From the NCBI GenBank assembly GCA_938037185.1, contig CALHQK010000095.1, forward strand, positions 943 through 64,942: 64,000 bases of DNA, read 5' to 3'. Shown here one piece after another: positions 11,691 through 62,473 of the stretch. Source of the DNA: an uncultured Riemerella sp. (GTDB lineage Bacteria > Bacteroidota > Bacteroidia > Flavobacteriales > Weeksellaceae). Made by a program: the position numbers and the translations under genes. The notes beneath the pieces were generated by a model. It was not told where the DNA came from, ran no database searches, and worked only from the letters and a program-made list of their open reading frames with translations. Every line of letters starts with the position of its first letter. The first letter of the stretch is position 1.

Positions 11691-11966
11691 TTAATCAAAA
11701 AATAAAATTTTCTCTATATAATCTTCTGCATTCTCTTTCTGGAAGTAAACATGATTTTTATTGAAATCTTCTATATCCATATTCTCTTTCCAATTAACAT
11801 CTAAATAAGATGTATTAGAAATAATGTATGAATCCAGCTCAATTTTGTAATCTTTAACTTGTGGTTCAATTTTATCTTTTAATAACTTCGCCTGTGCGCA
11901 TGTTATCAAAATGATGGTCACCATTGATGTAGATTTGGTCAAACTCCGAAGAACGAATGCTGTCAT
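11691..11966 (-). CDS. Hypothetical small protein downstream of the methyltransferase (real start probably an internal Met near 11925; the annotated 5' end overlaps the MTase 3' end)
   Basis: 91-aa ORF with no motif. Its only support is position in the helicase-MTase operon. Confidence 0.25.
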   Translation of the reverse strand: MTAFVLRSLTKSTSMVTIILITCAQAKLLKDKIEPQVKDYKIELDSYIISNTSYLDVNWKENMDIEDFNKNHVYFQKENAEDYIEKILFFD

Positions 11967-14709
11967 AGATTTTACGGAATTTTTTAGCGGTTTCTACATT
12001 ACGCCAGATGACCAGCGTTTTCGCGCCTTCTCTGGTTTTTCCTTCTATGAATTTGATATCGCCCACGCGCTGCATACGCTCTACATACAGCCCGATGAGA
12101 TAGTTAAAGGTCTCTACCAAATCCACCTTTGTAGGCACCAGCTCGTTGTTCTCGGTAACTTTCAGTTGGTAATTAAATGGATTACGGAACATCTGGATAT
12201 TGAACAGATGGTCTCTGCTCTCTACATCCAGCATATAGTTCAGCAGGTATTCTTCTTGTGTCCGTTCATCGAAGTTTAATAAAGATTCACTCAGTTTATT
12301 AGGTAATTGCAGATTGTTCAGAGTATCTTCGTAATTTTCCAAAATTTGGTAAGTGAACATTCCTCCTCCTTTCCAGTTCACATCTTTACTAATTCCTTTA
12401 TGAGAATTATTTAAAACTTTTTTCATTCTTATCAGAGGATATTCATTAAAATATTTGCCCATTTCAACACCTATCCATTTACGATTCATTTTATGACTTA
12501 CAGAAATTGTTGTACCACTACCAACGAAATAATCAAGTATTAAATCATTTTCTTTAGAAGTAATATCTATATATCTCTTTAGTAATATTTCTGCATTTTC
12601 TGTAGAAAATCCTGTAGTATTAGAGTAACCAGAAATATCTGTCCAATTTGTACCTAAAACTTTCTCATTAGTTGATTTTACCAAATATTTTGGATTCATA
12701 TTTTGGGATCCACAACTTGGACATGAATTTATTTGACCTTTATAATGAATATATTTACAATTTTTACAATCTAATCTTAATTCCCCAATACTAATTTTTT
12801 CATCAATTTTATCTTGAGAATATTTGAAATGTTTACCAACTGGAGGTGCTAATTCAAGTCCAAAAAAAACTTTTGAACTTCCTTGTCCTTCAGAATCATT
12901 CATATGTCTCCAATAAGCTTCTCTTTCTTCATCTAGCTTAATTACAGGATTATTATATGTAAAAAGTTCATTTTTAGAATAAATAGTCAAATAATCAAAT
13001 GAATAAGATAGGGTTTTTACATCAACATTTGTTTTATTTTTAAAAATTCTATTAATGACATTTTGGTTTCTAAAATTTTCTAAGCCAAATACACTATTCA
13101 TAAAAGATCTTATATAATAATCTCCATGATAATCTGATCGTATTCCAATAACCCCTTCATCTAATAATAAATCTTTAGTAAGAGTAATTCTATCATATAA
13201 TAACTGGATCCAAGAAGAATCTAAAAAATTAGTTTTATAAAGAAACTCACTAGAATGTTCCAAGTTAAAAGGTGGATCAATATAAACACTTTGTATACTG
13301 CCATTATACTTATTAGACAATAAACTTAGTGCTTGGAAGTTTTCGGAGTTTATCAGTAGTCCGTTGGTTTCTTCATCTAAGTTGTCAAACTCACCCAGCA
13401 GCTTGTCCTTAAACTCTTCGGAGAAGTGCTTGGTATCCAAGACCAAGAAAGGCTCTCCTGTCAGCTGCTCGGCAGAGGTAATGGTAACATCGTACAGCTC
13501 TTTCCACTCCTGCAGTTGTGCTTGGTTGGCAGCTATCTCAGCATAATATTCCTCTGGAATACGGTCCAGCGTGATGCAGTAGTTGGTACTGATAACGAAT
13601 TTCTTCTTCAGCCATAGTTTCTTTTGGAAATCCTCTATCTGCGCTAGGAAAGTGATGATTTTGGACGCCACGGTTTTCAGGGCTTTTATCTTGGAGAGCT
13701 GCGCCGTGAAAAAGGCTGGATTTTCGGTATTGATATCATCTATGTACAAGACTTCGTTTTTGATATAGAAATCCAACTCACGAGACAAAAATCCACCCAA
13801 ATCCTTATGGATGAAATAATCAAAACTATTACGAGAGATAAAACTGCTGAGATGTTTTTCTATAATCGTGCGGTTTTTGTTTTTCTCCGTCGGTGCTTTA
13901 TCAAAAATACCAGAGAAGTCCTCTGCAGCGGCTAGATTAGCGACATGGGACTGAATAACATTTATAGCCTCTGCCTCTAGGTCTTCTTGTTTTACGGTTT
14001 TCTTGTGTGGTTCATAGGTGAAATTGATGTACAGACTGCCATCCACCACCTCGATAGGCTGCTCTTCATAGATAGCAAAGCGGCGCTCCTGATCGCCTTG
14101 GGTTTTATTGTTATTTTGCTCAGTAGATGCTTCTTTTAGCTGGAAATGAACGAGTCTGCCATCGTTTGTCTTAAAAGCATAATTCTTCAGATACTCAGAA
14201 GTTTTGATGTAGTACTGGTCGTGATTTGCCCAATGTAGTTTCACTTCCTCACCTTCGTAAGGAATGGCATAGACATCTTTCTTGTAACGGCGCAAAGAGA
14301 TAAAGTCTCCTGCTTTGTAATAGCGCTTAAAGAAACTTGCCAGATGCGAAAAAACCTCTTGCTCCAGAGCATTGGTGTCAATCGTGTTTTCCAGTTGTGC
14401 TTTCAGCTCGATGACTTTTGGGAGATTATTGGGGTCTATGCCTAAATCTTGGGCGTTCTTGATGGCTTTATCTAATTCTGCCCGAATATCCATGGAGTCC
14501 TTCGACTGGGTCTGTGCTAGTATATCTTTAATGTCTTTGGGCAGTTTGTTATTGATGAAATCCATCACCTGCTCGCGTTTTTGATTCATAATGCGGTAGA
14601 TCCCAAAATCTAAATCCGCCTTATCCATCTCAAATATCTCTTTTAAAACTTTTTGTAAGTTTTCGTAATTGTTCATAGTGTTAATAATTATCTGATTATA
14701 CCAACTCAA
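11872..14709 (-). CDS. Site-specific DNA methyltransferase, beta-class amino-MTase (N6-adenine or N4-cytosine) with ~470-aa N-terminal extension and Cys4 zinc-ribbon in the putative target-recognition region
   Basis: Motif IV SVYIDPPFN at ~aa 476, followed ~245 aa later by motif I LDYFVGSGTT. The IV-then-I order indicates beta class. A CKNCKY...CPSCGSQN Cys4 cluster lies between them. The ORF-track start is a TTG overlapping the helicase stop; the first ATG (MNNYENL, ~14676) is more likely the start. Confidence 0.8.
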   Translation of the reverse strand: MSWYNQIIINTMNNYENLQKVLKEIFEMDKADLDFGIYRIMNQKREQVMDFINNKLPKDIKDILAQTQSKDSMDIRAELDKAIKNAQDLGIDPNNLPKVIELKAQLENTIDTNALEQEVFSHLASFFKRYYKAGDFISLRRYKKDVYAIPYEGEEVKLHWANHDQYYIKTSEYLKNYAFKTNDGRLVHFQLKEASTEQNNNKTQGDQERRFAIYEEQPIEVVDGSLYINFTYEPHKKTVKQEDLEAEAINVIQSHVANLAAAEDFSGIFDKAPTEKNKNRTIIEKHLSSFISRNSFDYFIHKDLGGFLSRELDFYIKNEVLYIDDINTENPAFFTAQLSKIKALKTVASKIITFLAQIEDFQKKLWLKKKFVISTNYCITLDRIPEEYYAEIAANQAQLQEWKELYDVTITSAEQLTGEPFLVLDTKHFSEEFKDKLLGEFDNLDEETNGLLINSENFQALSLLSNKYNGSIQSVYIDPPFNLEHSSEFLYKTNFLDSSWIQLLYDRITLTKDLLLDEGVIGIRSDYHGDYYIRSFMNSVFGLENFRNQNVINRIFKNKTNVDVKTLSYSFDYLTIYSKNELFTYNNPVIKLDEEREAYWRHMNDSEGQGSSKVFFGLELAPPVGKHFKYSQDKIDEKISIGELRLDCKNCKYIHYKGQINSCPSCGSQNMNPKYLVKSTNEKVLGTNWTDISGYSNTTGFSTENAEILLKRYIDITSKENDLILDYFVGSGTTISVSHKMNRKWIGVEMGKYFNEYPLIRMKKVLNNSHKGISKDVNWKGGGMFTYQILENYEDTLNNLQLPNKLSESLLNFDERTQEEYLLNYMLDVESRDHLFNIQMFRNPFNYQLKVTENNELVPTKVDLVETFNYLIGLYVERMQRVGDIKFIEGKTREGAKTLVIWRNVETAKKFRKIYDSIRSSEFDQIYINGDHHFDNMRTGEVIKR

Positions 14710-16072
14710 AAGAAATTGTAAATATTTCCTCTTCTGTTATCGTTCTGTTTAGTTTGTTTTTAGCTTCTGCTATCATATTGTCGCGCTCTGCGGCGATTTC
14801 TTCCTCGCGGTCGAACATCATTTTTTTCAGCCTTGATACTTTCTTTTTAGCTTTTGCCAGCTGTTCCTGTAACGCCAAAACTTCGGTGGCGGACAGACCT
14901 TCCCGCATGGCTGATCGGTCTATTTCTTTTTCTTCTTTTTTTGCATCTTTCAGTTCTGCTCCCAATTCTTCTATCCTATCATCAGCCCAGTTATGGAATT
15001 TTTTGAATTCTCTCTGCATCAGAGCTGCATCGGTATCTTCTAAATATTTTAATCGTCCCGTTTTTACATTGGTATGATGTTTTTCTATCACATCCAGATT
15101 TCCTCTGAAATCGCCATGAACGCTAGAATTCAGCCCTAAAATAAATCGGCAGATATCATCATTTAGAATTTCATCAGCATCTGTAACACCAGAAAAAAGC
15201 AATACAGAGTGAGATTCTATTTCAGAAGAAACCTCTAAGTTGCTTATTCTCAATATGCCCGATTTAGACTTTAGACTGCTGATTTCAGAGTGTTTTACAT
15301 TCATACTACTCCAATCAAAGGAAATATGAGCGAGAGGCGTTTTTTCTTTTTTGCCTTGGTCTATCATTTTCTGTGCAAAAGCACTATTGATTAATAATCG
15401 TTTAGCATCCTCTCTCTTTTTATTTAGTGTGTATTTTTCGCCATTATCTAAAATGAATGTATAGTCATCATAAATAAACTGAGCTTTGTTTTGCAGATAG
15501 AATCTGGTCAATTCCCACAGCCATTTTTCATATTTTTCTATAAAAATCTTGGTTTCAGAATAGGTGGTACGCAGTTTTTCTATGACACTCGCCTCGAAAT
15601 TATCAAATAATTTAGACTGTATTTCTTTAACTTTTTGGTCGATTTGATCTTCAAATTCACTTTGCAATTGATCAAAATACTCCTCTATTTCCTGTTTTGT
15701 ACGGCATTTTTTATAAACTTCTATGATTCTTTTCTCAAAATCAAGCCCATTTCCTATAGCTCCCAGTACTTCATCGGAGGAACCGAAAACGCCGTTGAAT
15801 AGGCGGAATTTGTTTTCGAGCAATTCGTATACTCTTGTTTCCACTGCATTAGCTGCGTTTATAAAATTTACGACCACCACATCATATTCTTGTCCATATC
15901 GATGGCAGCGGCCTATACGCTGTTCTATACGCTGCGGATTCCAAGGCAGATCATAATTGACAATCATACTGCAGAACTGTAAGTTAATCCCTTCTGAAGC
16001 CGCTTCCGTGGCGATCATTATATCATATTTATCACTTTTGAAGGCATCTACCAAAGCTTGTCTGATATCCAC
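14696..16072 (-). CDS. SNF2-family helicase, C-terminal fragment (helicase-C domain + coiled-coil tail); 3' part of a frameshift-interrupted gene
   Basis: Helicase-C motifs ATEAASEGINLQ and NYDLPWNPQRIEQRIGRCHRYGQ. The ORF starts at a GTG immediately after a frame break, and its frame stays open upstream into the A6 tract. Confidence 0.75.
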   Translation of the reverse strand: MDIRQALVDAFKSDKYDIMIATEAASEGINLQFCSMIVNYDLPWNPQRIEQRIGRCHRYGQEYDVVVVNFINAANAVETRVYELLENKFRLFNGVFGSSDEVLGAIGNGLDFEKRIIEVYKKCRTKQEIEEYFDQLQSEFEDQIDQKVKEIQSKLFDNFEASVIEKLRTTYSETKIFIEKYEKWLWELTRFYLQNKAQFIYDDYTFILDNGEKYTLNKKREDAKRLLINSAFAQKMIDQGKKEKTPLAHISFDWSSMNVKHSEISSLKSKSGILRISNLEVSSEIESHSVLLFSGVTDADEILNDDICRFILGLNSSVHGDFRGNLDVIEKHHTNVKTGRLKYLEDTDAALMQREFKKFHNWADDRIEELGAELKDAKKEEKEIDRSAMREGLSATEVLALQEQLAKAKKKVSRLKKMMFDREEEIAAERDNMIAEAKNKLNRTITEEEIFTISFELV

Positions 16073-16095
16073 CGCTTTGGAACCTGTAATTTTGC

Positions 16096-17532
16096 CTATA
16101 TTTTTTCATCCGCTATCCAGTCCTTATATATTTGGGTAGACATTGGATCGGAGTTATTTCCATTAAAAATCAAGATTCTCCCAGCATATTTTTCTTTAGA
16201 TAAACGCTCTAGTAAATATTGTTGTGTTCTAGTAGATTCGGTAAATATTAATGCTTTTTGTTTCGCACCTAGTTCCTTTAGCTTCGCAAAACCTTGGTCT
16301 AAGGCTACCAATAGTTTCTCTCCCTTTTCATTATGCTGAATACTATTAGAAAGAATCAAAAATTCTTCTAATTGTTTAATTTCCTCCTCTATTGCGATTT
16401 TATCATCTAATGTTATTTCATTATAGTCTTCCTCCTCGGTAATTCCTGCTTCATCAGCCTCATCATCCAGATTTTCGTATTCGTCTAAAAACATTTCGTA
16501 TAAATCATCTTCAACAACTCTTGATGTTTCAAGAAGTGTTTTTAATCTCTTTATCAATGATTCTAATGTTCTGCCAATAGCAAAAGATGATGAACCTAAT
16601 AATTTAAAAATCACAGATTGCATCAAATGTTTTTGTGATGGAGGAAAGGCATAGGTTTTATCTTTTCTAAGATAGTCTAAAACCTTTTCATATAATTCTT
16701 GTTCTTCCTTTGTAGGTGTGAACTGCTGAGTGATAGGAATTCGCTCCCTGTAGTTGATAAATTCTTTTACATCTTTTCGTAAAGTACGATGGACAATAGA
16801 ACTTAATCTTTCTTTTAAGTCATTAATATCAGATTTTTTTGATTCTAAAATATAATTGCGTCTGAAACTTTTGATATCTCCAAAAACTTCAGAATCGATA
16901 AAAGATACTAAACCATACAATTCATCTAAACGATTTTGTAAAGGTGTAGCAGTGAGTAATACTTTCTTATAGTCTTTAATGGCTTTTTGGATAGTTTGTG
17001 CTGTGACATTTCCTTGTTTATAGGCATTCCTCAAATAATGTGCTTCATCTATGACAACTAAATCCCAAGAGGTCAATTGTATTTCTTCTGCACATTTTTT
17101 AGCAAATTCATAGCTACATATTTTTATAGTAAGTTCGCTATCAAATGGGTTTTTAATTCCTGCTTTGGATTTTTTCTTATAAGAAACATTATCCAAAACT
17201 TCTGCTTTTAAATAAAATTTATCTTCTAATTCGTTTACCCATTGTTTTCGTAATGAGGATGGACATATGATAAGAATTTTTCTTTTTCCCTCAGCCCATT
17301 TTTGGCTCAATAAAATCCCTGCTTCGATGGTTTTACCTAAACCAACTTCATCTGCAAGAATAACACCTTTAGAATAAGGAGATTTAAAAGCAAATAGCGC
17401 TGCTTCTACCTGATGAGGGTTTAATTCCACCTTTGCATCCATTAAAGTGGTTCCAAACTTTTCTAAACTATCTGAAGTTGCTTTTTTAGATAATTCGTAA
17501 GCATAATATTTGGCTTGGTATTGGTTAATCAT
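16096..17532 (-). CDS. SNF2-family helicase, N-terminal ATPase fragment; 5' part of a frameshift-interrupted gene
   Basis: Motif I LADEVGLGKTIEA, motif II VVIDEAHYLRN (DEAH) and the SNF2 motif III LLTATPLQNRLDELYGLVSFI. It ends ...IADEKI* directly after an A6 run. Confidence 0.8.
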   Translation of the reverse strand: MINQYQAKYYAYELSKKATSDSLEKFGTTLMDAKVELNPHQVEAALFAFKSPYSKGVILADEVGLGKTIEAGILLSQKWAEGKRKILIICPSSLRKQWVNELEDKFYLKAEVLDNVSYKKKSKAGIKNPFDSELTIKICSYEFAKKCAEEIQLTSWDLVVIDEAHYLRNAYKQGNVTAQTIQKAIKDYKKVLLTATPLQNRLDELYGLVSFIDSEVFGDIKSFRRNYILESKKSDINDLKERLSSIVHRTLRKDVKEFINYRERIPITQQFTPTKEEQELYEKVLDYLRKDKTYAFPPSQKHLMQSVIFKLLGSSSFAIGRTLESLIKRLKTLLETSRVVEDDLYEMFLDEYENLDDEADEAGITEEEDYNEITLDDKIAIEEEIKQLEEFLILSNSIQHNEKGEKLLVALDQGFAKLKELGAKQKALIFTESTRTQQYLLERLSKEKYAGRILIFNGNNSDPMSTQIYKDWIADEKI

Positions 17533-17739
17533 AGCACAAAATTATATCATATAAAAACACTTAAGCTGTAAAAATATTTTTAAAATACTAAGTTGCAAAA
17601 TACTAAAAAGCTTACACTTATTAAAATAATAGATTTAATAAAAAGAGAAATTTTAGTAATATGCTAAAATATAGGTGATTAAAAATATCATTCATAATAC
17701 TAATAATTATAAACCTCTTTTATCTCCTTTCGACTGAAA

Positions 17740-17879: not shown

Positions 17880-17909
17880 AAAATAAGGAAAAACCTTATT
17901 TATATTTTA

Positions 17910-17983
<74 letters not shown>

Positions 17984-18058
17984 ATTTTGTTTTGCAAAGG
18001 TATGATTTTTTTTAGAACTGGCAAATATTTTTACCAAAAAATTCAATAAATTTACAAG

Positions 18059-28500: not shown

Positions 28501-29280
28501 TCAGACTGAATACGAAAGCTTTTCATCGTCATTAAAAGGTTCTTTTAGTTTAGAAAATATTTCCTCTGCTATCTTTTCGCTGCTTTTGATGCTTCCTCCC
28601 TCAGTGATATCCACAAAGCCAGTCTTACATTTCTTTTTCTTATCCAATTTATCGTAATGAAATTCTTCAAAACTGCTGTCCGTTTGTCCAGTTTTAGGAT
28701 AAAGCAATAATGTTTTTTCGGCATCCCAATGCAAATTATAAACGAACATTTGTTTCAAATCCTCGTCCGAAGGATTATTGGTTTCTATGATTTTCCATTT
28801 GGTATCGATGACAAAAATATCTTGCCCTGTTCGCAAAATAATATCAGGGCGTATGCGTTTGTTTTCCCAAAATCTCTTGGATTTTTGAGGAAATACCTGC
28901 ACCTCATCTGTCTTATGTTTTTGGAGAATGCGGAAAATATATTCTCCCCACAAAGCATTCATATCAAACAAAAGCGTGAGTAAATTTTCGCTTCCGTAGT
29001 TCAAACTCGGAGAATAATTCAGGATGATGATTTTAGCAATATCAAACGCCTTTTGGTAGTCGCTGTTTTTTCTGTCAAAAACTATTTTTCGGAAATGCTT
29101 CTCGGTTATTTCTATGTTTTCAATTTCTTGAAATTCAAAAAGCAGTCGGTTCAGCCTATCCTTCAATGCATCATTTACAAAGGTTTTCAGAATTTGTAAT
29201 CCCTTGTACAAAATCTGATGCAGCAGATGATTCCTGTCATAAACCTGATGTTCGCAATAAAACCGCTCCTGATGCACCAA
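28501..29280 (-). CDS. mcrC: McrC-like type IV restriction nuclease subunit, C-terminal fragment (PD-(D/E)xK)
   Basis: The nuclease core is RPDIILRTGQDIFVIDTKWK (PD..D..IDTK). Its frame stays open upstream into the preceding fragment. Confidence 0.65.
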   Translation of the reverse strand: MVHQERFYCEHQVYDRNHLLHQILYKGLQILKTFVNDALKDRLNRLLFEFQEIENIEITEKHFRKIVFDRKNSDYQKAFDIAKIIILNYSPSLNYGSENLLTLLFDMNALWGEYIFRILQKHKTDEVQVFPQKSKRFWENKRIRPDIILRTGQDIFVIDTKWKIIETNNPSDEDLKQMFVYNLHWDAEKTLLLYPKTGQTDSSFEEFHYDKLDKKKKCKTGFVDITEGGSIKSSEKIAEEIFSKLKEPFNDDEKLSYSV

Positions 29281-29764
29281 ATTTTGCTGAATATTTTTCG
29301 CAAAAAGTAGTTTTCCTTTTAGTGCATTTTGATTGGATTGGTTCTTTTTGGTATCTCTTTATCAAACCTTTATTTGCAAGTCGTTCTATATCAGCGAGAT
29401 ACAACTCAAAATAAACATCCAAAATAGAATGATGCCTTTTTTTGAGCTGGGTTTCCGAAACGGATTCCACCTGAATACGCTTGCAGACTTTCAGCATATT
29501 GAGCAGTACACTCTGCCACAAATTTTTATCTGCATCAGCCTTTTTATCAGCCTTGGGAAGGATTTCTATGGTCAAACCACCAATTTGAACAACTCCGACA
29601 TAGTTCTTAAAAATAATCCCATTATGACCAATTGTAAAATATTTATTCTGATGCAGCTCATTAAACTTCACCATCGCATCAAAATGACATTTCCGAAAAT
29701 CTCCCGAATTATCATACTTTAATCTTTGATGCTCAAAAACTTGTATAAACTTCTTGCCCTGCAT
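29237..29764 (-). CDS. mcrC: McrC-like subunit, N-terminal fragment
   Basis: HNGIIFKNYVGVVQIGGLTIEILPK is typical of the McrC N-terminal region. The ORF terminates within 15 codons of a +1 frame switch to the C-terminal fragment. Confidence 0.6.
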   Translation of the reverse strand: MQGKKFIQVFEHQRLKYDNSGDFRKCHFDAMVKFNELHQNKYFTIGHNGIIFKNYVGVVQIGGLTIEILPKADKKADADKNLWQSVLLNMLKVCKRIQVESVSETQLKKRHHSILDVYFELYLADIERLANKGLIKRYQKEPIQSKCTKRKTTFCEKYSAKFGASGAVLLRTSGL

Positions 29765-29810: not shown

Positions 29811-31271
29811 TCAGAAGAAGTAATATGGTATATTTTTTTGTCTTCTAAAAAGTTTTTTTTCGTACTCGAAATTTTCTGGGAATGCTACCTGATTTTCGGC
29901 TAGTTTAATAAACTCTCCTCCCAAAACCAAACTTATTTTCCCAAAATCTCCGTAGAAATATTCCTCCAAAAGCGGAATAATTTTATCCTTAAAAGCTCTT
30001 TTCAAACCGTTTAAATCCTCAATACCAATAAAATACGAATGACCAATCTGGTGATCTTTGTCTATCAGCACCTCTATTCGCTGGTTGATGGTTTCTAAAA
30101 GCTTGGATAAATCCACATCTTTATATTTCTCATCAGATAAAATCTCAGGTTTAGGCTGCATTTCCACAAAGGAAAACCTTCTCCTAAGGGCAGTATCCAG
30201 AGCCTCTACACTTCGGTCAGCAGTGTTCATCGTCCCGATGATATAGACATTATTAGGAACAGAAAACTCTCTACCTGAATATGGGAGTTTTGCCTCGGTA
30301 TGTTCTTTATTTCCTTTTCTTTTGTCTTCCTCTAAAAACGTGATGAGCTCCCCAAAAATAGCAGAAACATTACCACGATTGATTTCATCAATAATAAGGA
30401 CATGGGTTTTGGGTTCTATTACTTCATTCTGAGTATAATTATATTTTTCAATGATATAATTAGCCACAGATTTTGTATAAGGTGCCCAATCTAAAACCTC
30501 TCCTGTTTTTAAATAATGTTCTAAAACTTCTTTTTTAATTACAGCCTCATATGCTTTTTCTGTATTTGAATGAAAACGAATATTGTTCTTTGAGTTTTTA
30601 TATATTGTAAACTCTTTCGCATGAACCAATGTTTCTAAAACCAATTTATTATCAGCTGAATTATCAATTTCATCTAATAATTTTTGATAAACAACTTCAA
30701 AATTATCCGATGTAATTTCTTTTGAAAAAGCGTTTTTACAGATTGTTTTAAAAATCCCATCTTTCACCTTGTAAGTCACATTACCACCTTCGGTAATTTC
30801 GGGTTTTATGCCTTCAATAAAATCCTCATAACTCAAACTCTGATGAAAAGTCGTGAAAACGATTTGTCCTGCTTCTACCAGCTCTTCGTACTCCTTGTTG
30901 ATTTCTTTTCTGGTTCTCGCCTTTTTTCCGTTGATAATTTCGACAGCCATTTTCTTCGTGTGGTAGGTTTTCCCTGTCCCTGGAGCACCAAAAAGAATTT
31001 GATTCAATGGGACAGCTGGTGTTTTATCGTCGTTTTTCATTGGTTTATCAGTGATTGTTATTGTTTTTAATTGGTCTAAAACTTCTTTTCGGAAATCAGC
31101 ATCAAAAGCCATTTTCTCCAATTCTTCTTTGTTATACTTGAAATAGTTAGATTTTTGGGCTCTATTAAGCTCTTTCTCAATCGCGTTAAATATGGATTGC
31201 TGGTGTTTTAAGACTTCTGAAATGTTACTAAATCCATTCCAAAAAGCCGTAGGTTTTCCATCAAAATCCAA
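29811..31271 (-). CDS. mcrB: McrB-like AAA+ GTPase subunit of a type IV (modification-dependent) restriction system
   Basis: Walker A LFGAPGTGKTY, the McrB-specific motif FHQSLSYEDFIEG and Walker B LIIDEINRGN. The ORF-track start is TTG, and the frame continues upstream after a single TAA. Confidence 0.8.
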   Translation of the reverse strand: MDFDGKPTAFWNGFSNISEVLKHQQSIFNAIEKELNRAQKSNYFKYNKEELEKMAFDADFRKEVLDQLKTITITDKPMKNDDKTPAVPLNQILFGAPGTGKTYHTKKMAVEIINGKKARTRKEINKEYEELVEAGQIVFTTFHQSLSYEDFIEGIKPEITEGGNVTYKVKDGIFKTICKNAFSKEITSDNFEVVYQKLLDEIDNSADNKLVLETLVHAKEFTIYKNSKNNIRFHSNTEKAYEAVIKKEVLEHYLKTGEVLDWAPYTKSVANYIIEKYNYTQNEVIEPKTHVLIIDEINRGNVSAIFGELITFLEEDKRKGNKEHTEAKLPYSGREFSVPNNVYIIGTMNTADRSVEALDTALRRRFSFVEMQPKPEILSDEKYKDVDLSKLLETINQRIEVLIDKDHQIGHSYFIGIEDLNGLKRAFKDKIIPLLEEYFYGDFGKISLVLGGEFIKLAENQVAFPENFEYEKKLFRRQKNIPYYFF

Positions 31272-59205: not shown

Positions 59206-59272
59206 AGATAAAAAGTATTTATTACAAATATATAAATTATCTGACTAAAAACAAAGGCTTTGCGATATTACT

Positions 59273-59632
59273 TTATTTCAAAAGCTGACTTCCTAAATAC
59301 ACCGCAGAAAGCCCCAATGCAATGCTCAATGTCAAGTACAAAACCAAAATTCCATACTGTCCGTTTTGCCAAAGAGTGATGTTTTCCATAGAAAATGTGG
59401 AAAATGTAGTAAATCCGCCACAAAATCCTGTAACCATAAGGTATTTCAGATATTCATTTTCTTTGCATAAAGAAGAAAATATTCCAATGAAAAAACATCC
59501 CAAAACATTGGCCAAGAGTGTTCCAAGAGGAAAAGAGCCTGCCATCGGTAGTTTATGAGCATAATTAGAAATCATAAACCTAAAAATACTCCCCACTCCT
59601 CCCCCTATGAAAACATATATCAGGGCTTTCAT
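59273..59632 (-). CDS. crcB: Fluoride efflux channel CrcB/Fluc
   Basis: GGGVGSIFR and GFCGGFTTFSTFS motifs. 119 aa. Confidence 0.85.
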   Translation of the reverse strand: MKALIYVFIGGGVGSIFRFMISNYAHKLPMAGSFPLGTLLANVLGCFFIGIFSSLCKENEYLKYLMVTGFCGGFTTFSTFSMENITLWQNGQYGILVLYLTLSIALGLSAVYLGSQLLK

Positions 59633-59641
59633 AGTAGTTTT

Positions 59642-60583
59642 TTATTTTAATTCGCCTAAATATCTCTCTGCATCTATCGCTGCCATACATCCGCTTCCTG
59701 CTGCTGTAACTGCCTGACGATAAATGTGATCCTGCACATCTCCTGCCGCGAAAATCCCAGGAAGATTGGTTCTAGAAGATTTTCCTTCGGTGATGATATA
59801 GCCATTTTCATCCATATCTATTTGCCCTTTAAATATCTCAGTATTAGGCTGATGTCCTATGGCTATGAATATCCCGCTGACAGGGATTTCAGAAGTTTCT
59901 TGGGTCTGGTTGTTGATAACCACAGCTTTTTCCACCAAGTTATTTTCCCCTTTGATACCTATCAATTCGTGATTAAATTTCACTTCTATATTTGGCGTTT
60001 TTTCCACTCTGTGAGCCATTGCTTTGGAAGCCCGGAAATAGTTTTTTCTCACAAGCATGGTCACTTTGCTGCAAATATTAGCAAGATAAGTCGCCTCTTC
60101 AGCTGCCGTGTCCCCTGCTCCAACTACGATAACTTCTTGGTTTCTGTAAAAAAATCCGTCACATGTAGCACATGCAGACACGCCGCCGCCAGAGTATTTC
60201 TTCTCATCATCCAGCCCAAGGTATTTGGCTGTCGCTCCAGTGGAAATAATCACAGTTTTAGCCAAAATTTCTTTCTCTCCTGCCCAAAACTTATGAATTC
60301 CGCCTTTTTCTTTAGAAAATTCCACTTTCGTAATCATTTCATAATGAACTTTGGTGTCAAATCTTTCAGCTTGTTTTTGTAAATCTTCCATCATTTTTAG
60401 CCCTGTAACTCCCTCTGGATACCCTGGGAAATTGTCCACTTCCGTAGTCGTAGTAAGCTGGCCGCCATGCTGCAGACCTGTATAAAGTTCAGGTTTTAAA
60501 TCCGCTCTCGCTGCATAGATAGCTGCCGTAAAACCAGAAGGTCCAGAACCTATAATCACACAATCTAAAATATTATTCTCCAT
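59642..60583 (-). CDS. trxB: Thioredoxin-disulfide reductase
   Basis: FAD GSGPSG and NADPH GGG motifs, plus the redox-active CATC. Confidence 0.9.
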   Translation of the reverse strand: MENNILDCVIIGSGPSGFTAAIYAARADLKPELYTGLQHGGQLTTTTEVDNFPGYPEGVTGLKMMEDLQKQAERFDTKVHYEMITKVEFSKEKGGIHKFWAGEKEILAKTVIISTGATAKYLGLDDEKKYSGGGVSACATCDGFFYRNQEVIVVGAGDTAAEEATYLANICSKVTMLVRKNYFRASKAMAHRVEKTPNIEVKFNHELIGIKGENNLVEKAVVINNQTQETSEIPVSGIFIAIGHQPNTEIFKGQIDMDENGYIITEGKSSRTNLPGIFAAGDVQDHIYRQAVTAAGSGCMAAIDAERYLGELK

Positions 60584-60594
60584 TTTTATATTTT

Positions 60595-61572
60595 TTAAAA
60601 TTCTCTTTTTATTACATAATCCAGCATCAGCTGTAAGGATTTTTTCGCTTCATTATCAGGAAATTCTGATAAAATATCCAAAGCCTTCTGCTGGTAATTT
60701 TCCATTATTTTCTCGGCGTAGTCCAGCCCGCCCGTTTTTTTCACAAAATCAATCAGTTCTTTTACTCGTTTTGGGTTTTTATTATGGTTTTTAATGATAT
60801 TAAAATAATATTTTCTGTCCTTTTCATTTGCCGTTTTTAAAGAATAAATAAGCGGCAAAGTCATTTTTTGTTCCTTAATATCTATGCCCGCAGGCTTCCC
60901 TACGATGTTTTTGCTAAAATAATCAAACAAATCATCTTTTATCTGAAAAGCCATTCCTGCATAAATCCCAAAATCTTTCATCTTCATTATCAGCGAGTTT
61001 TCAGCATTATTAGAAACTGCTCCTATCTGGCAGCACGCCGAAATAAGCGAAGCTGTTTTTTGTCTAATAATCTGATAATAAATATCTTCCGTAATGTCCA
61101 GTTTTCTTGCTTTTTCCAGTTGTAAAAGCTCGCCTTCGGACATGTCTTTTATGGTTTGGGAAACGATTTCCAACAAATCAAAATCCTTATTTTCAGTAGA
61201 AAGAATTACCGATTTGGACAATAAATAATCCCCAATCAAAACCGCAGTCTTGTTCCCCCATAAGGCGTTGATAGAGAAGAAATTCCGCCTTCTAGTGCTC
61301 TCATCTACTACATCATCATGCACCAAAGCCGCCGTATGTATCAGCTCTATCAAAGAAGCTCCACGAAAGGTTTTTTCGCTCACCTCGCCTGTCATTTTCG
61401 CTGAAAGGAAAACAAGGATAGGCCGCATCTGTTTGCCCTTCGTAGCGATGATAAATTGTGTAATTTTATCTAATAAAGGCACGCTGCTCTGCATGGACTG
61501 ATAAAACTTTTCCTCAAAAAGTTTCATTTCCCTGCTTATGGGAGCTTTGATTTCTTCTAAGATTTTAGCCAC
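60595..61572 (-). CDS. Polyprenyl diphosphate synthase (trans-IPPS, IspB-like)
   Basis: First Asp-rich motif LVHDDVVDES and second motif FQIKDDLFD. Confidence 0.8.
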   Translation of the reverse strand: MAKILEEIKAPISREMKLFEEKFYQSMQSSVPLLDKITQFIIATKGKQMRPILVFLSAKMTGEVSEKTFRGASLIELIHTAALVHDDVVDESTRRRNFFSINALWGNKTAVLIGDYLLSKSVILSTENKDFDLLEIVSQTIKDMSEGELLQLEKARKLDITEDIYYQIIRQKTASLISACCQIGAVSNNAENSLIMKMKDFGIYAGMAFQIKDDLFDYFSKNIVGKPAGIDIKEQKMTLPLIYSLKTANEKDRKYYFNIIKNHNKNPKRVKELIDFVKKTGGLDYAEKIMENYQQKALDILSEFPDNEAKKSLQLMLDYVIKREF

Positions 61573-61615
61573 AATTTTATTTTAATCCACAAATATAAGA
61601 TTATTTAATTTTAAA

Positions 61616-62473
61616 TTACAGCCGCTCAAAAGGCACAAAATACAAACTCTGTTTCGCCTGAAAACAGAATTTCTTAAATTCTTCGCCTGAGATATAAATG
61701 CCCTTTTCATCTACTGCAACTCCCTCTATCTGACCATATTTAAAGACCGAACCCAGCTTGTATTTTGTATATTTTCCACTGAAAAAATTCCCGTTTTCAT
61801 CTTCCTCAAAAATCATCAAAAAGGCTTTTGCTATCTTATTATATCCCACCAGATACAGTTTTTTATTAAAATAAAAAGCATCCGTTACCAAGAAATTGGT
61901 TTTGAATTCTTCCGTTTTTTCGATGCTCTGTTCTTCCTCTGTATCAGGATTTATCGCGTATTTAGAAACTTTCAGCGAAGCCCATTCTTTGGAAAAAAGA
62001 TAAATTTTCCCATCTTTGAAAATCATCGCTTCGGCATCAAAATCGTGTTTGTCTTTTTTAAAGCTAAAATGAGGCTGATTTTTATATTTAAAACTGATTT
62101 TCTGATGAGAATTATCCGATATTTTATAAATCGCTAAATCCGTTCTTTTGCCCCTATTATTCCCGAAATCTCCTACATAAAGGCTTTGTCCGTCGCTAGT
62201 CATGGCTTCCCAGTCTCTGTTTGGGAAATCAACTTTGATGGTAGAAATTATCTGCCCACTTTCAGGATTTATTTCATAAATTTCATTGAGATTTCCACCG
62301 TCATTAAAGCTGTACAACCTCCCATTCATCAGCGTTAATCCTGATGTTTCCCTCAAAGTATCATTTAAGACAGCGATTTTATAATTTTTCAAAGGCAGCC
62401 TTTTGGTTTTTTGAGCCAAAGAAAAAACCGATATGAGAATAAAAAACAAAAGATAAAATCTACTAAAACGCAT
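61616..62473 (-). CDS. Hypothetical secreted beta-propeller-like protein
   Basis: Signal peptide. 285 aa with repeated aromatic/Gly strands. Weak. Confidence 0.4.
   Translation of the reverse strand: MRFSRFYLLFFILISVFSLAQKTKRLPLKNYKIAVLNDTLRETSGLTLMNGRLYSFNDGGNLNEIYEINPESGQIISTIKVDFPNRDWEAMTSDGQSLYVGDFGNNRGKRTDLAIYKISDNSHQKISFKYKNQPHFSFKKDKHDFDAEAMIFKDGKIYLFSKEWASLKVSKYAINPDTEEEQSIEKTEEFKTNFLVTDAFYFNKKLYLVGYNKIAKAFLMIFEEDENGNFFSGKYTKYKLGSVFKYGQIEGVAVDEKGIYISGEEFKKFCFQAKQSLYFVPFERL

Follow-up and report, generated by a model that had tools for sequence, protein, structure and literature searches.

Phase variation is classically found in restriction-modification genes (PMC1976455), and the working cut-off for candidate phase-variable poly-A/T loci is a run of at least 10 (PMC6321876). 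In the Type III modA loci of Haemophilus influenzae and Neisseria, res has been lost by frameshifts or by a 32-bp deletion, and mod has been kept (PMC1976455). Among other defense systems, DISARM class 1 (DrmD-DrmMI) and ARMADA (ArmA-ArmB) both have an SNF2 helicase encoded directly upstream of an adenine methyltransferase (PMC13463889). The definition of ARMADA further includes a YprA-family DExH helicase with DUF1998 (ArmC) and a UvrD-like ArmD (PMC13463889; 10.1101/2025.09.15.676423).

The stretch of DNA analyzed here, referred to as the window (64 kb, 35.6% G+C), has on its minus strand a gene for a DrmD-like SNF2 helicase that is broken at an A6 run. With a probability of roughly 85%, we interpret this split as a frameshift pseudogene, fixed and evolutionarily young, within a Type III-like restriction cassette that is decaying. 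The features of this cassette are as follows (window coordinates).

17533..17714, minus strand: upstream leader of the cassette, conserved; alignments to intact cassettes begin at window 17714.
16096..17532, minus strand: N-terminal fragment of the putative helicase pseudogene, 478 aa, ending in DEKI before the stop; contains the SNF2-related domain and the first ~38 Helicase_C residues.
16101..16106, minus strand: A6 run; the ancestral tract was an in-frame A7 (GAA AAA AAT, E-K-N); site of the 1-nt deletion; also A6 in the same-lineage loci L001-L010.
14696..16105, minus strand: C-terminal part of the helicase in the -1 frame, 469 codons; contains the remaining Helicase_C and a C-terminal coiled-coil region.
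11872..14676, minus strand: Type III Mod-like N6-adenine methyltransferase, 934 aa from the ATG at 14676; ORF intact, ending in MRTGEVIKR before the stop, with the native last ~21 codons gone.
11883..11888, no strand: deletion junction, ~3.07-kb deletion with AAGnTA microhomology; the 3' end of Mod is fused to the 3' end of Res.
11703..11888, minus strand: Res-like gene remnant, 186 nt, the last ~62 codons; 94.6-95.7% identity to the Res 3' end of intact cassettes.

The minus-strand reading at the break is ...GCG GAT GAA AAA ATA TAG, with the TAG at 16098..16096 and a T6 on the plus strand. The C-terminal frame is open from a TGA at 16108..16106, the last A of which is common to the A6 run, to a stop at 14698..14696. 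The first possible start in this frame is a GTG at 16072..16070, from which gene callers call a 458-aa ORF. A sequence-only reading of the window had claimed that the helicase is split at an A6 just before a stop codon, and re-reading of the frames and stop positions in the sequence confirmed this. Its second claim, that one added A gives a continuous SNF2 protein, also held: with an extra A in the tract, there is a single 945-aa ORF, which reads ...DWIADEKNIGKITGSKAVDIRQALVDAFK... and has the usual length for the family (mostly 943-950 aa among the 120 matches listed). In this repaired helicase, the SNF2-related domain (PF00176) is at residues 53-287 and Helicase_C (PF00271) is at residues 440-547. 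The break, at residues 477/478, falls within Helicase_C, so the tract does not sit exactly at a domain junction as had been supposed. Snf2/Swi2-type SF2 helicases have both domains in one polypeptide, and the ORF in the window is interrupted within the second. Judged from its sequence, the split gene is homologous to these helicases, yet is a pseudogene. The two halves match adjacent stretches of the PADLOC DrmD model PDLC02619 (24-464 for the N-terminal half and 465-658 for the C-terminal half). DrmD models are also the best models for the family, with 686 bits for an intact relative against PDLC02619 and 680 bits for the intact sister-lineage helicase against the NCBIfam model NF038318 (DISARM_DrmD_b), the latter below the equivalog cut-off of 950 that DISARM class 1 would require.

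The A6 tract is unremarkable among the A/T runs of the gene and the window. The helicase gene by itself contains 12 A/T runs of at least 6, and the window contains 220 A/T runs of exactly 6. At ~36% G+C, there is about one such run of 6 per 300 bases, and an ordinary frameshift will therefore usually land in one. A homopolymer location alone is thus no sign of phase variation.

Public assemblies contain about 18-22 contigs that encode exactly this truncated product of 478 aa. Ten same-lineage loci were fetched (L001-L010), representing 10 different sample accessions and several contig-naming series; one of these contigs is labelled human oral metagenome. All ten carry A6, match the window at 99-100% identity across as much as 7.1 kb, and have identical neighbors (Cu-ATPase, split helicase, methyltransferase, and amidase). 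In addition, four variants of the 478-aa product (P0121 and P0129-131) all bear the marker residues of the lineage, and at the break site, the remaining members sampled from their clusters read in frame. Truncation at this site on any other haplotype background was not seen among the sampled relatives. A homopolymer error in the sequencing or assembly of the window record, with the real gene intact, was one of the options raised by the sequence-only reading. This option gains something from the origin of the window, which lies on a 69-kb contig apparently from a metagenome-assembled genome, and from a second defense gene in the window, mcrC, which is also split near a short A run, with that split not confirmed in other assemblies. 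However, the identical A6 is present in all ten contigs fetched, which come from different samples, studies, and assemblers. Furthermore, the same study series (VALL22 scaffolds and k141 contigs) gives A7 in the sister lineage, indicating that the A6/A7 state tracks the haplotype rather than the method. Sequencing error is therefore excluded as far as assemblies can show, and its probability is negligible.

The split mcrC (PF10117; window 28501-29764, minus strand) consists of ORFs of 175 aa and 259 aa, which match profile positions 3-96 and 110-318, respectively, and lies downstream of a gene for an McrB-like AAA_5 GTPase (29811-31271, minus strand). The reading frame changes close to an A5 run (29345-29349), and an A4-to-A5 insertion may have caused the split. 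Exact look-ups of the split products matched no other assembly.

For the ancestral state of the tract, the closest intact relatives all carry A7 (GAA AAA AAT or AAC; L011-13, L018, L039, and L040-47), including all eight loci of the sister lineage (L040-47). The sister-lineage cassette and the window share 94.3% identity across an alignment of 5.9 kb, which includes the same methyltransferase target-recognition region, and the polyprenyl synthase-TrxB-CrcB genes of this lineage are ~95% identical to window 59265-62426. These patterns indicate that the A6 is the derived state and arose when a coding A7 lost one base. The check proposed in the sequence-only reading, whether relatives carry A7, thus has a positive answer for the close relatives. 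The next clade has GAG AAA AAT at the tract, and more distant relatives have GAT AAA AAT, GAA AAC AAC, GAA AAG AAT, and others. As these relatives interrupt the run, the tract itself is not conserved.

For the timing of the lesion, 34 synonymous and 8 non-synonymous changes fall on the window-specific branch of the repaired helicase (dN/dS of 0.06), and the helicase has no further lesion in the window besides the frameshift. The dN/dS values on the branches of intact lineages are 0.04-0.05, and the similarity between these values indicates that the frameshift is recent. It is young relative to the ~6% synonymous divergence of the branch, yet it predates the common ancestor of the strains that were sampled. 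Sequence decay by itself cannot tell a young pseudogene from a locked-OFF reversible allele. Decay is still going on within the lineage, where one locus (L008) has a further 51-bp deletion at 16044-16094 that removes the GTG at 16072 and 17 conserved Helicase_C residues, and a second contig encodes the same 440-aa product. The SNP clusters in two other loci (L003 and L010) match alleles common to the intact lineages in 22 of the 36 variant codons, suggesting that they are recombination imports and not drift. Several close relatives are truncated at other sites of the helicase. Decay has taken another form in L018 (4614-7433; an uncultured Riemerella sp. MAG), the helicase of which carries A7 and is intact to residue 937; Mod and Res are missing at this locus, and unrelated ORFs come next. 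The altered C-terminus of this helicase is also found in P0096.

Another option in the sequence-only reading was a phase-variation (contingency) switch, in which reversible slippage between A6 and A7 toggles the helicase and hence restriction or methylation. The lesion is indeed in a homopolymer with the ancestral state one repeat unit away, and the gene is otherwise undamaged, with the low dN/dS given above. However, A7 was found in none of the 18-22 contigs of the lineage, all of which are frameshifted, although these are consensus assemblies that are blind to minority A7 subpopulations. As the sister lineage has A7 in eight of eight loci, no tract-length polymorphism was observed among close strains in either lineage. 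The repaired (ON) haplotypes of four types (those of the window, L003, L008, and L010) had no exact match among ~15 billion proteins. Likewise, a search of JGI metagenomes with a DNA pattern spanning the tract recovered one contig (L039), which has A7 but comes from another genome, one in which the triad is intact; no ON allele of the window lineage was recovered there. Moreover, A6 was not seen on other haplotype backgrounds, and the run of 6 here or 7 in relatives is far below the poly-A/T cut-off of at least 10 (PMC6321876) and is too short for high-frequency slippage. Synonymous or near-synonymous codons break the run in relatives, the tract is one of 12 comparable runs in the gene, and a sublineage has lost the 17 conserved codons adjoining it. 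No other simple-sequence repeats were found in the cassette. Finally, since Res is deleted (see below), no restriction activity is left to switch. A switch of this kind has a slim chance at best.

Programmed -1 ribosomal frameshifting or transcriptional slippage would provide another route to a full-length helicase. A -1 shift on the A run gives the exact family sequence (...DEKNIGK...), and the stop in the 0 frame is two codons on. Nonetheless, neither of the heptamers available in the 0 frame (U GAA AAA and A AAA AUA) has the canonical X XXY YYZ form, the downstream 91 nt fold no better than shuffled sequences (z = -0.68), and the shift is not conserved, as relatives outside one shallow clade are all in-frame. 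For transcriptional slippage to be efficient, a run of at least about 8-9 is needed, and the A6 does not reach this length. Recoding at this site is therefore extremely improbable.

A functional split gene, in which the N- and C-terminal polypeptides assemble into an active helicase, may also be considered given that both ORFs are long and undamaged and that the 458-aa C-terminal ORF is called from the GTG at 16072. However, the cut lies inside the Helicase_C fold, after its first ~38 residues, and no other member of the family is split there. The sequence-only reading had named a clean A6 in all relatives, with the two halves independently conserved, as the pattern that would speak against its view; the relatives instead carry A7, and the halves are not conserved as separate genes. 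In addition, the sublineage represented by L008 deleted the putative restart GTG together with 17 flanking codons, and the Res partner is gone. Reassembly of the halves is thus very unlikely.

For the cassette as a whole, the intact family consists of three genes that encode an SNF2 helicase, a Type III-like Mod, and a Type III-like Res. This triad was found in every related locus long enough to show it, with the third gene following the helicase-Mod pair directly or after a few inserted genes. The triad is distributed across Bacteroidota, including Chryseobacterium, Empedobacter, Weeksella, Sphingobacterium, Pelobium, and MAGs of Saprospiraceae and Chitinophagaceae. The Res-like protein of the relatives has 1062-1063 aa and matches the PADLOC model REase_III PDLC03654 (E-value of 1e-201) and Pfam ResIII; a comparison by sequence with solved structures gave no match for it. 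The earlier view that the helicase belongs to a restriction-modification context is consistent with these findings. As an additional observation, in many relatives that are more distant (L019, L021-L024, L026, L030, L032, and L035-L037), a further 1.4-3.3 kb of coding sequence separates the methyltransferase gene from the Res-like one.

The left edge of the cassette in the window can be placed at 17714, where homology to the intact cassettes of other genomes starts. At the other end, the methyltransferase alignment to intact cassettes ends at 11883, and a three-way alignment shows a clean junction. The deletion (~3.07 kb) took ~21 codons from the end of Mod and ~1000 codons from the start of Res. 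The 186-nt remnant, which still encodes the C-terminus KLLKDKIEPQVK...EDYIEKIL, is all that is left beside Mod of the Res that a Type III system would have there, and no further Res-like sequence was found in the 64-kb window. This Res-deleted structure is common to all same-lineage contigs long enough to show it. Among the three options of the sequence-only reading, the pseudogene is thus supported. Sequencing error is not, because the contigs of many samples share the split; neither is a phase-variation switch, given the lack of an ON allele, the short and unconserved tract, and the deletion of Res.

The methyltransferase gene (PF01555) starts 20 nt past the helicase stop. Its product has the motif order DPPF then FxGxG, which is that of the beta class, and its best models are the Type III models of PADLOC (MTase_III PDLC03646, 612 bits). 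The closest solved chains are also Type III Mods (6k0w, 7dsu, and 4zcf). The window methyltransferase therefore shows the hallmarks of a Type III Mod, namely a beta-class N6-adenine methyltransferase with a central target-recognition region. The central ~1 kb of the gene is the part that differs between cassettes, with one type in the window and L040 and another in L011 and L039. This target-recognition region (12334-13328, residues ~460-790) is wholly different between cassettes that are otherwise 94-96% identical, suggesting that Mod specificity may have been swapped by recombination. The region in the window also holds a CxxC...CxxC zinc-ribbon-like insert (CKNCKYIHYKGQINSCPSCGS). Smaller differences were observed within the lineage. 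These include an 18-bp in-frame indel at 11992 that is flanked by a GAAAC direct repeat (with the short form in the window and L006) and a 9-bp in-frame deletion in L002 (12762-12770). In L010, a G-to-T change created a nonsense codon in the methyltransferase at 13125. As its ORF remains open in most strains, the methyltransferase probably persists as an orphan methylase, with activity predicted from the sequence.

Taken together, these findings are best explained by an ancestral three-gene cassette, the products of which were a DrmD-like SNF2 helicase of 945 aa, a methyltransferase like Type III Mod (~956 aa), and a helicase-nuclease like Type III Res (~1062 aa). The lineage seems to be an uncultured, Riemerella-like member of the Weeksellaceae from the human mouth, and two lesions have become fixed in it. 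One is the 3.07-kb deletion, which took almost all of Res and the end of Mod. The other is the frameshift, in which, on this explanation, replication slippage cut the coding A7 to A6 and truncated the helicase inside Helicase_C. The helicase, left without a restriction partner, is decaying, and the methyltransferase has been kept. The two lesions, their fixation across samples, the ancestral A7, and the lack of ON alleles are seen directly in the data. We infer from the sequences compared both the order of the deletion and the frameshift and the functional outcome, that is, loss of function in the helicase and continued activity of the methyltransferase.

A less conventional possibility is that the lesion may not be dead. 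It may act as a rare reversible A6/A7 switch, or early termination 1.4 kb upstream of the Mod start may tune the orphan Mod; separately, the triad may be an unnamed hybrid of DISARM-like and Type III systems. We consider these ideas long shots. If a switch or Mod tuning were true, a former defense cassette would have become an epigenetic regulator in an oral commensal, phasevarion-like by another route. The young pseudogene, our preferred reading, matters little by itself. It provides a population-level example of the decay of a restriction cassette, in which the putative nuclease was deleted, the helper helicase was frameshifted at a short homopolymer, and the methyltransferase was kept. It also serves as a warning for annotation, in that the two helicase ORFs should be annotated together as a single pseudogene, and the methyltransferase should be labelled a probable orphan.

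The genomic position of the cassette also varies among lineages. In the sister lineage, the intact cassette is located ~3.3 kb from CrcB, after a gene with a PoNi domain. In the window, the cassette is 41 kb away from the CrcB region, between the Cu-ATPase and amidase genes, and its orientation is reversed relative to a conserved element of ~160 nt (17891-18053). No empty-site or intact-site variants of this chromosome locus were found when the flanking Cu-ATPase (847 and 841 aa) and amidase were looked up by exact sequence. Judged from these arrangements, the cassette behaves as a relocatable unit that begins 182 nt upstream of the helicase, ends at the Res stop, and has no obvious recombinase. 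In L014 (5497-9660), an intact cassette is found beside an integrase fragment and HTH genes, downstream of mnmE; these neighbors suggest that it is carried on an integrated element.

In comparison with known systems, the locus resembles simple-sequence-repeat contingency loci in having a frameshift in a mononucleotide run of a restriction-modification-linked gene. Unlike in those loci, the run is only 6-7 nt long and is not conserved, its length is not polymorphic within the lineage, and the system that it would control is already broken. As in DrmD-DrmMI and ArmA-ArmB, the helicase is immediately upstream of an N6-adenine-type methyltransferase, an adjacency (DrmMI-like) that is expected for DISARM class 1. 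Unlike in DISARM and ARMADA, the third gene of the cassette is Type III Res-like. No genes for DrmA, DrmB (DUF1998/YprA), or DrmC (PLD) were found beside the cassette in the window, L014, L039, or L040-47; in the loci other than the window, unrelated genes directly follow the intact cassette. The third gene of the intact cassettes also contains no detectable ArmC or ArmD domains. Membership in DISARM or ARMADA was rejected on gene content, given the lack of DrmA, DrmB, and DrmC and of a YprA-type helicase. The most fitting description of the cassette is a Type III-like restriction-modification system in which a DrmD-like SNF2 helicase is the partner. Compared with the Type III systems of Haemophilus and Neisseria, it has this helicase as an additional gene upstream of Mod, and its Mods (~950-990 aa) and Res (~1062 aa) are unusually long. 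Unlike modA, the Mod gene in the window has no simple-sequence repeat, so nothing suggests a phasevarion. Nevertheless, the modA loci of H. influenzae and Neisseria provide a close parallel: the Mod in the window is likewise Type III-like with a variable central target-recognition region, and restriction function has likewise been lost through a frameshift and a deletion, with the methylase ORF kept.
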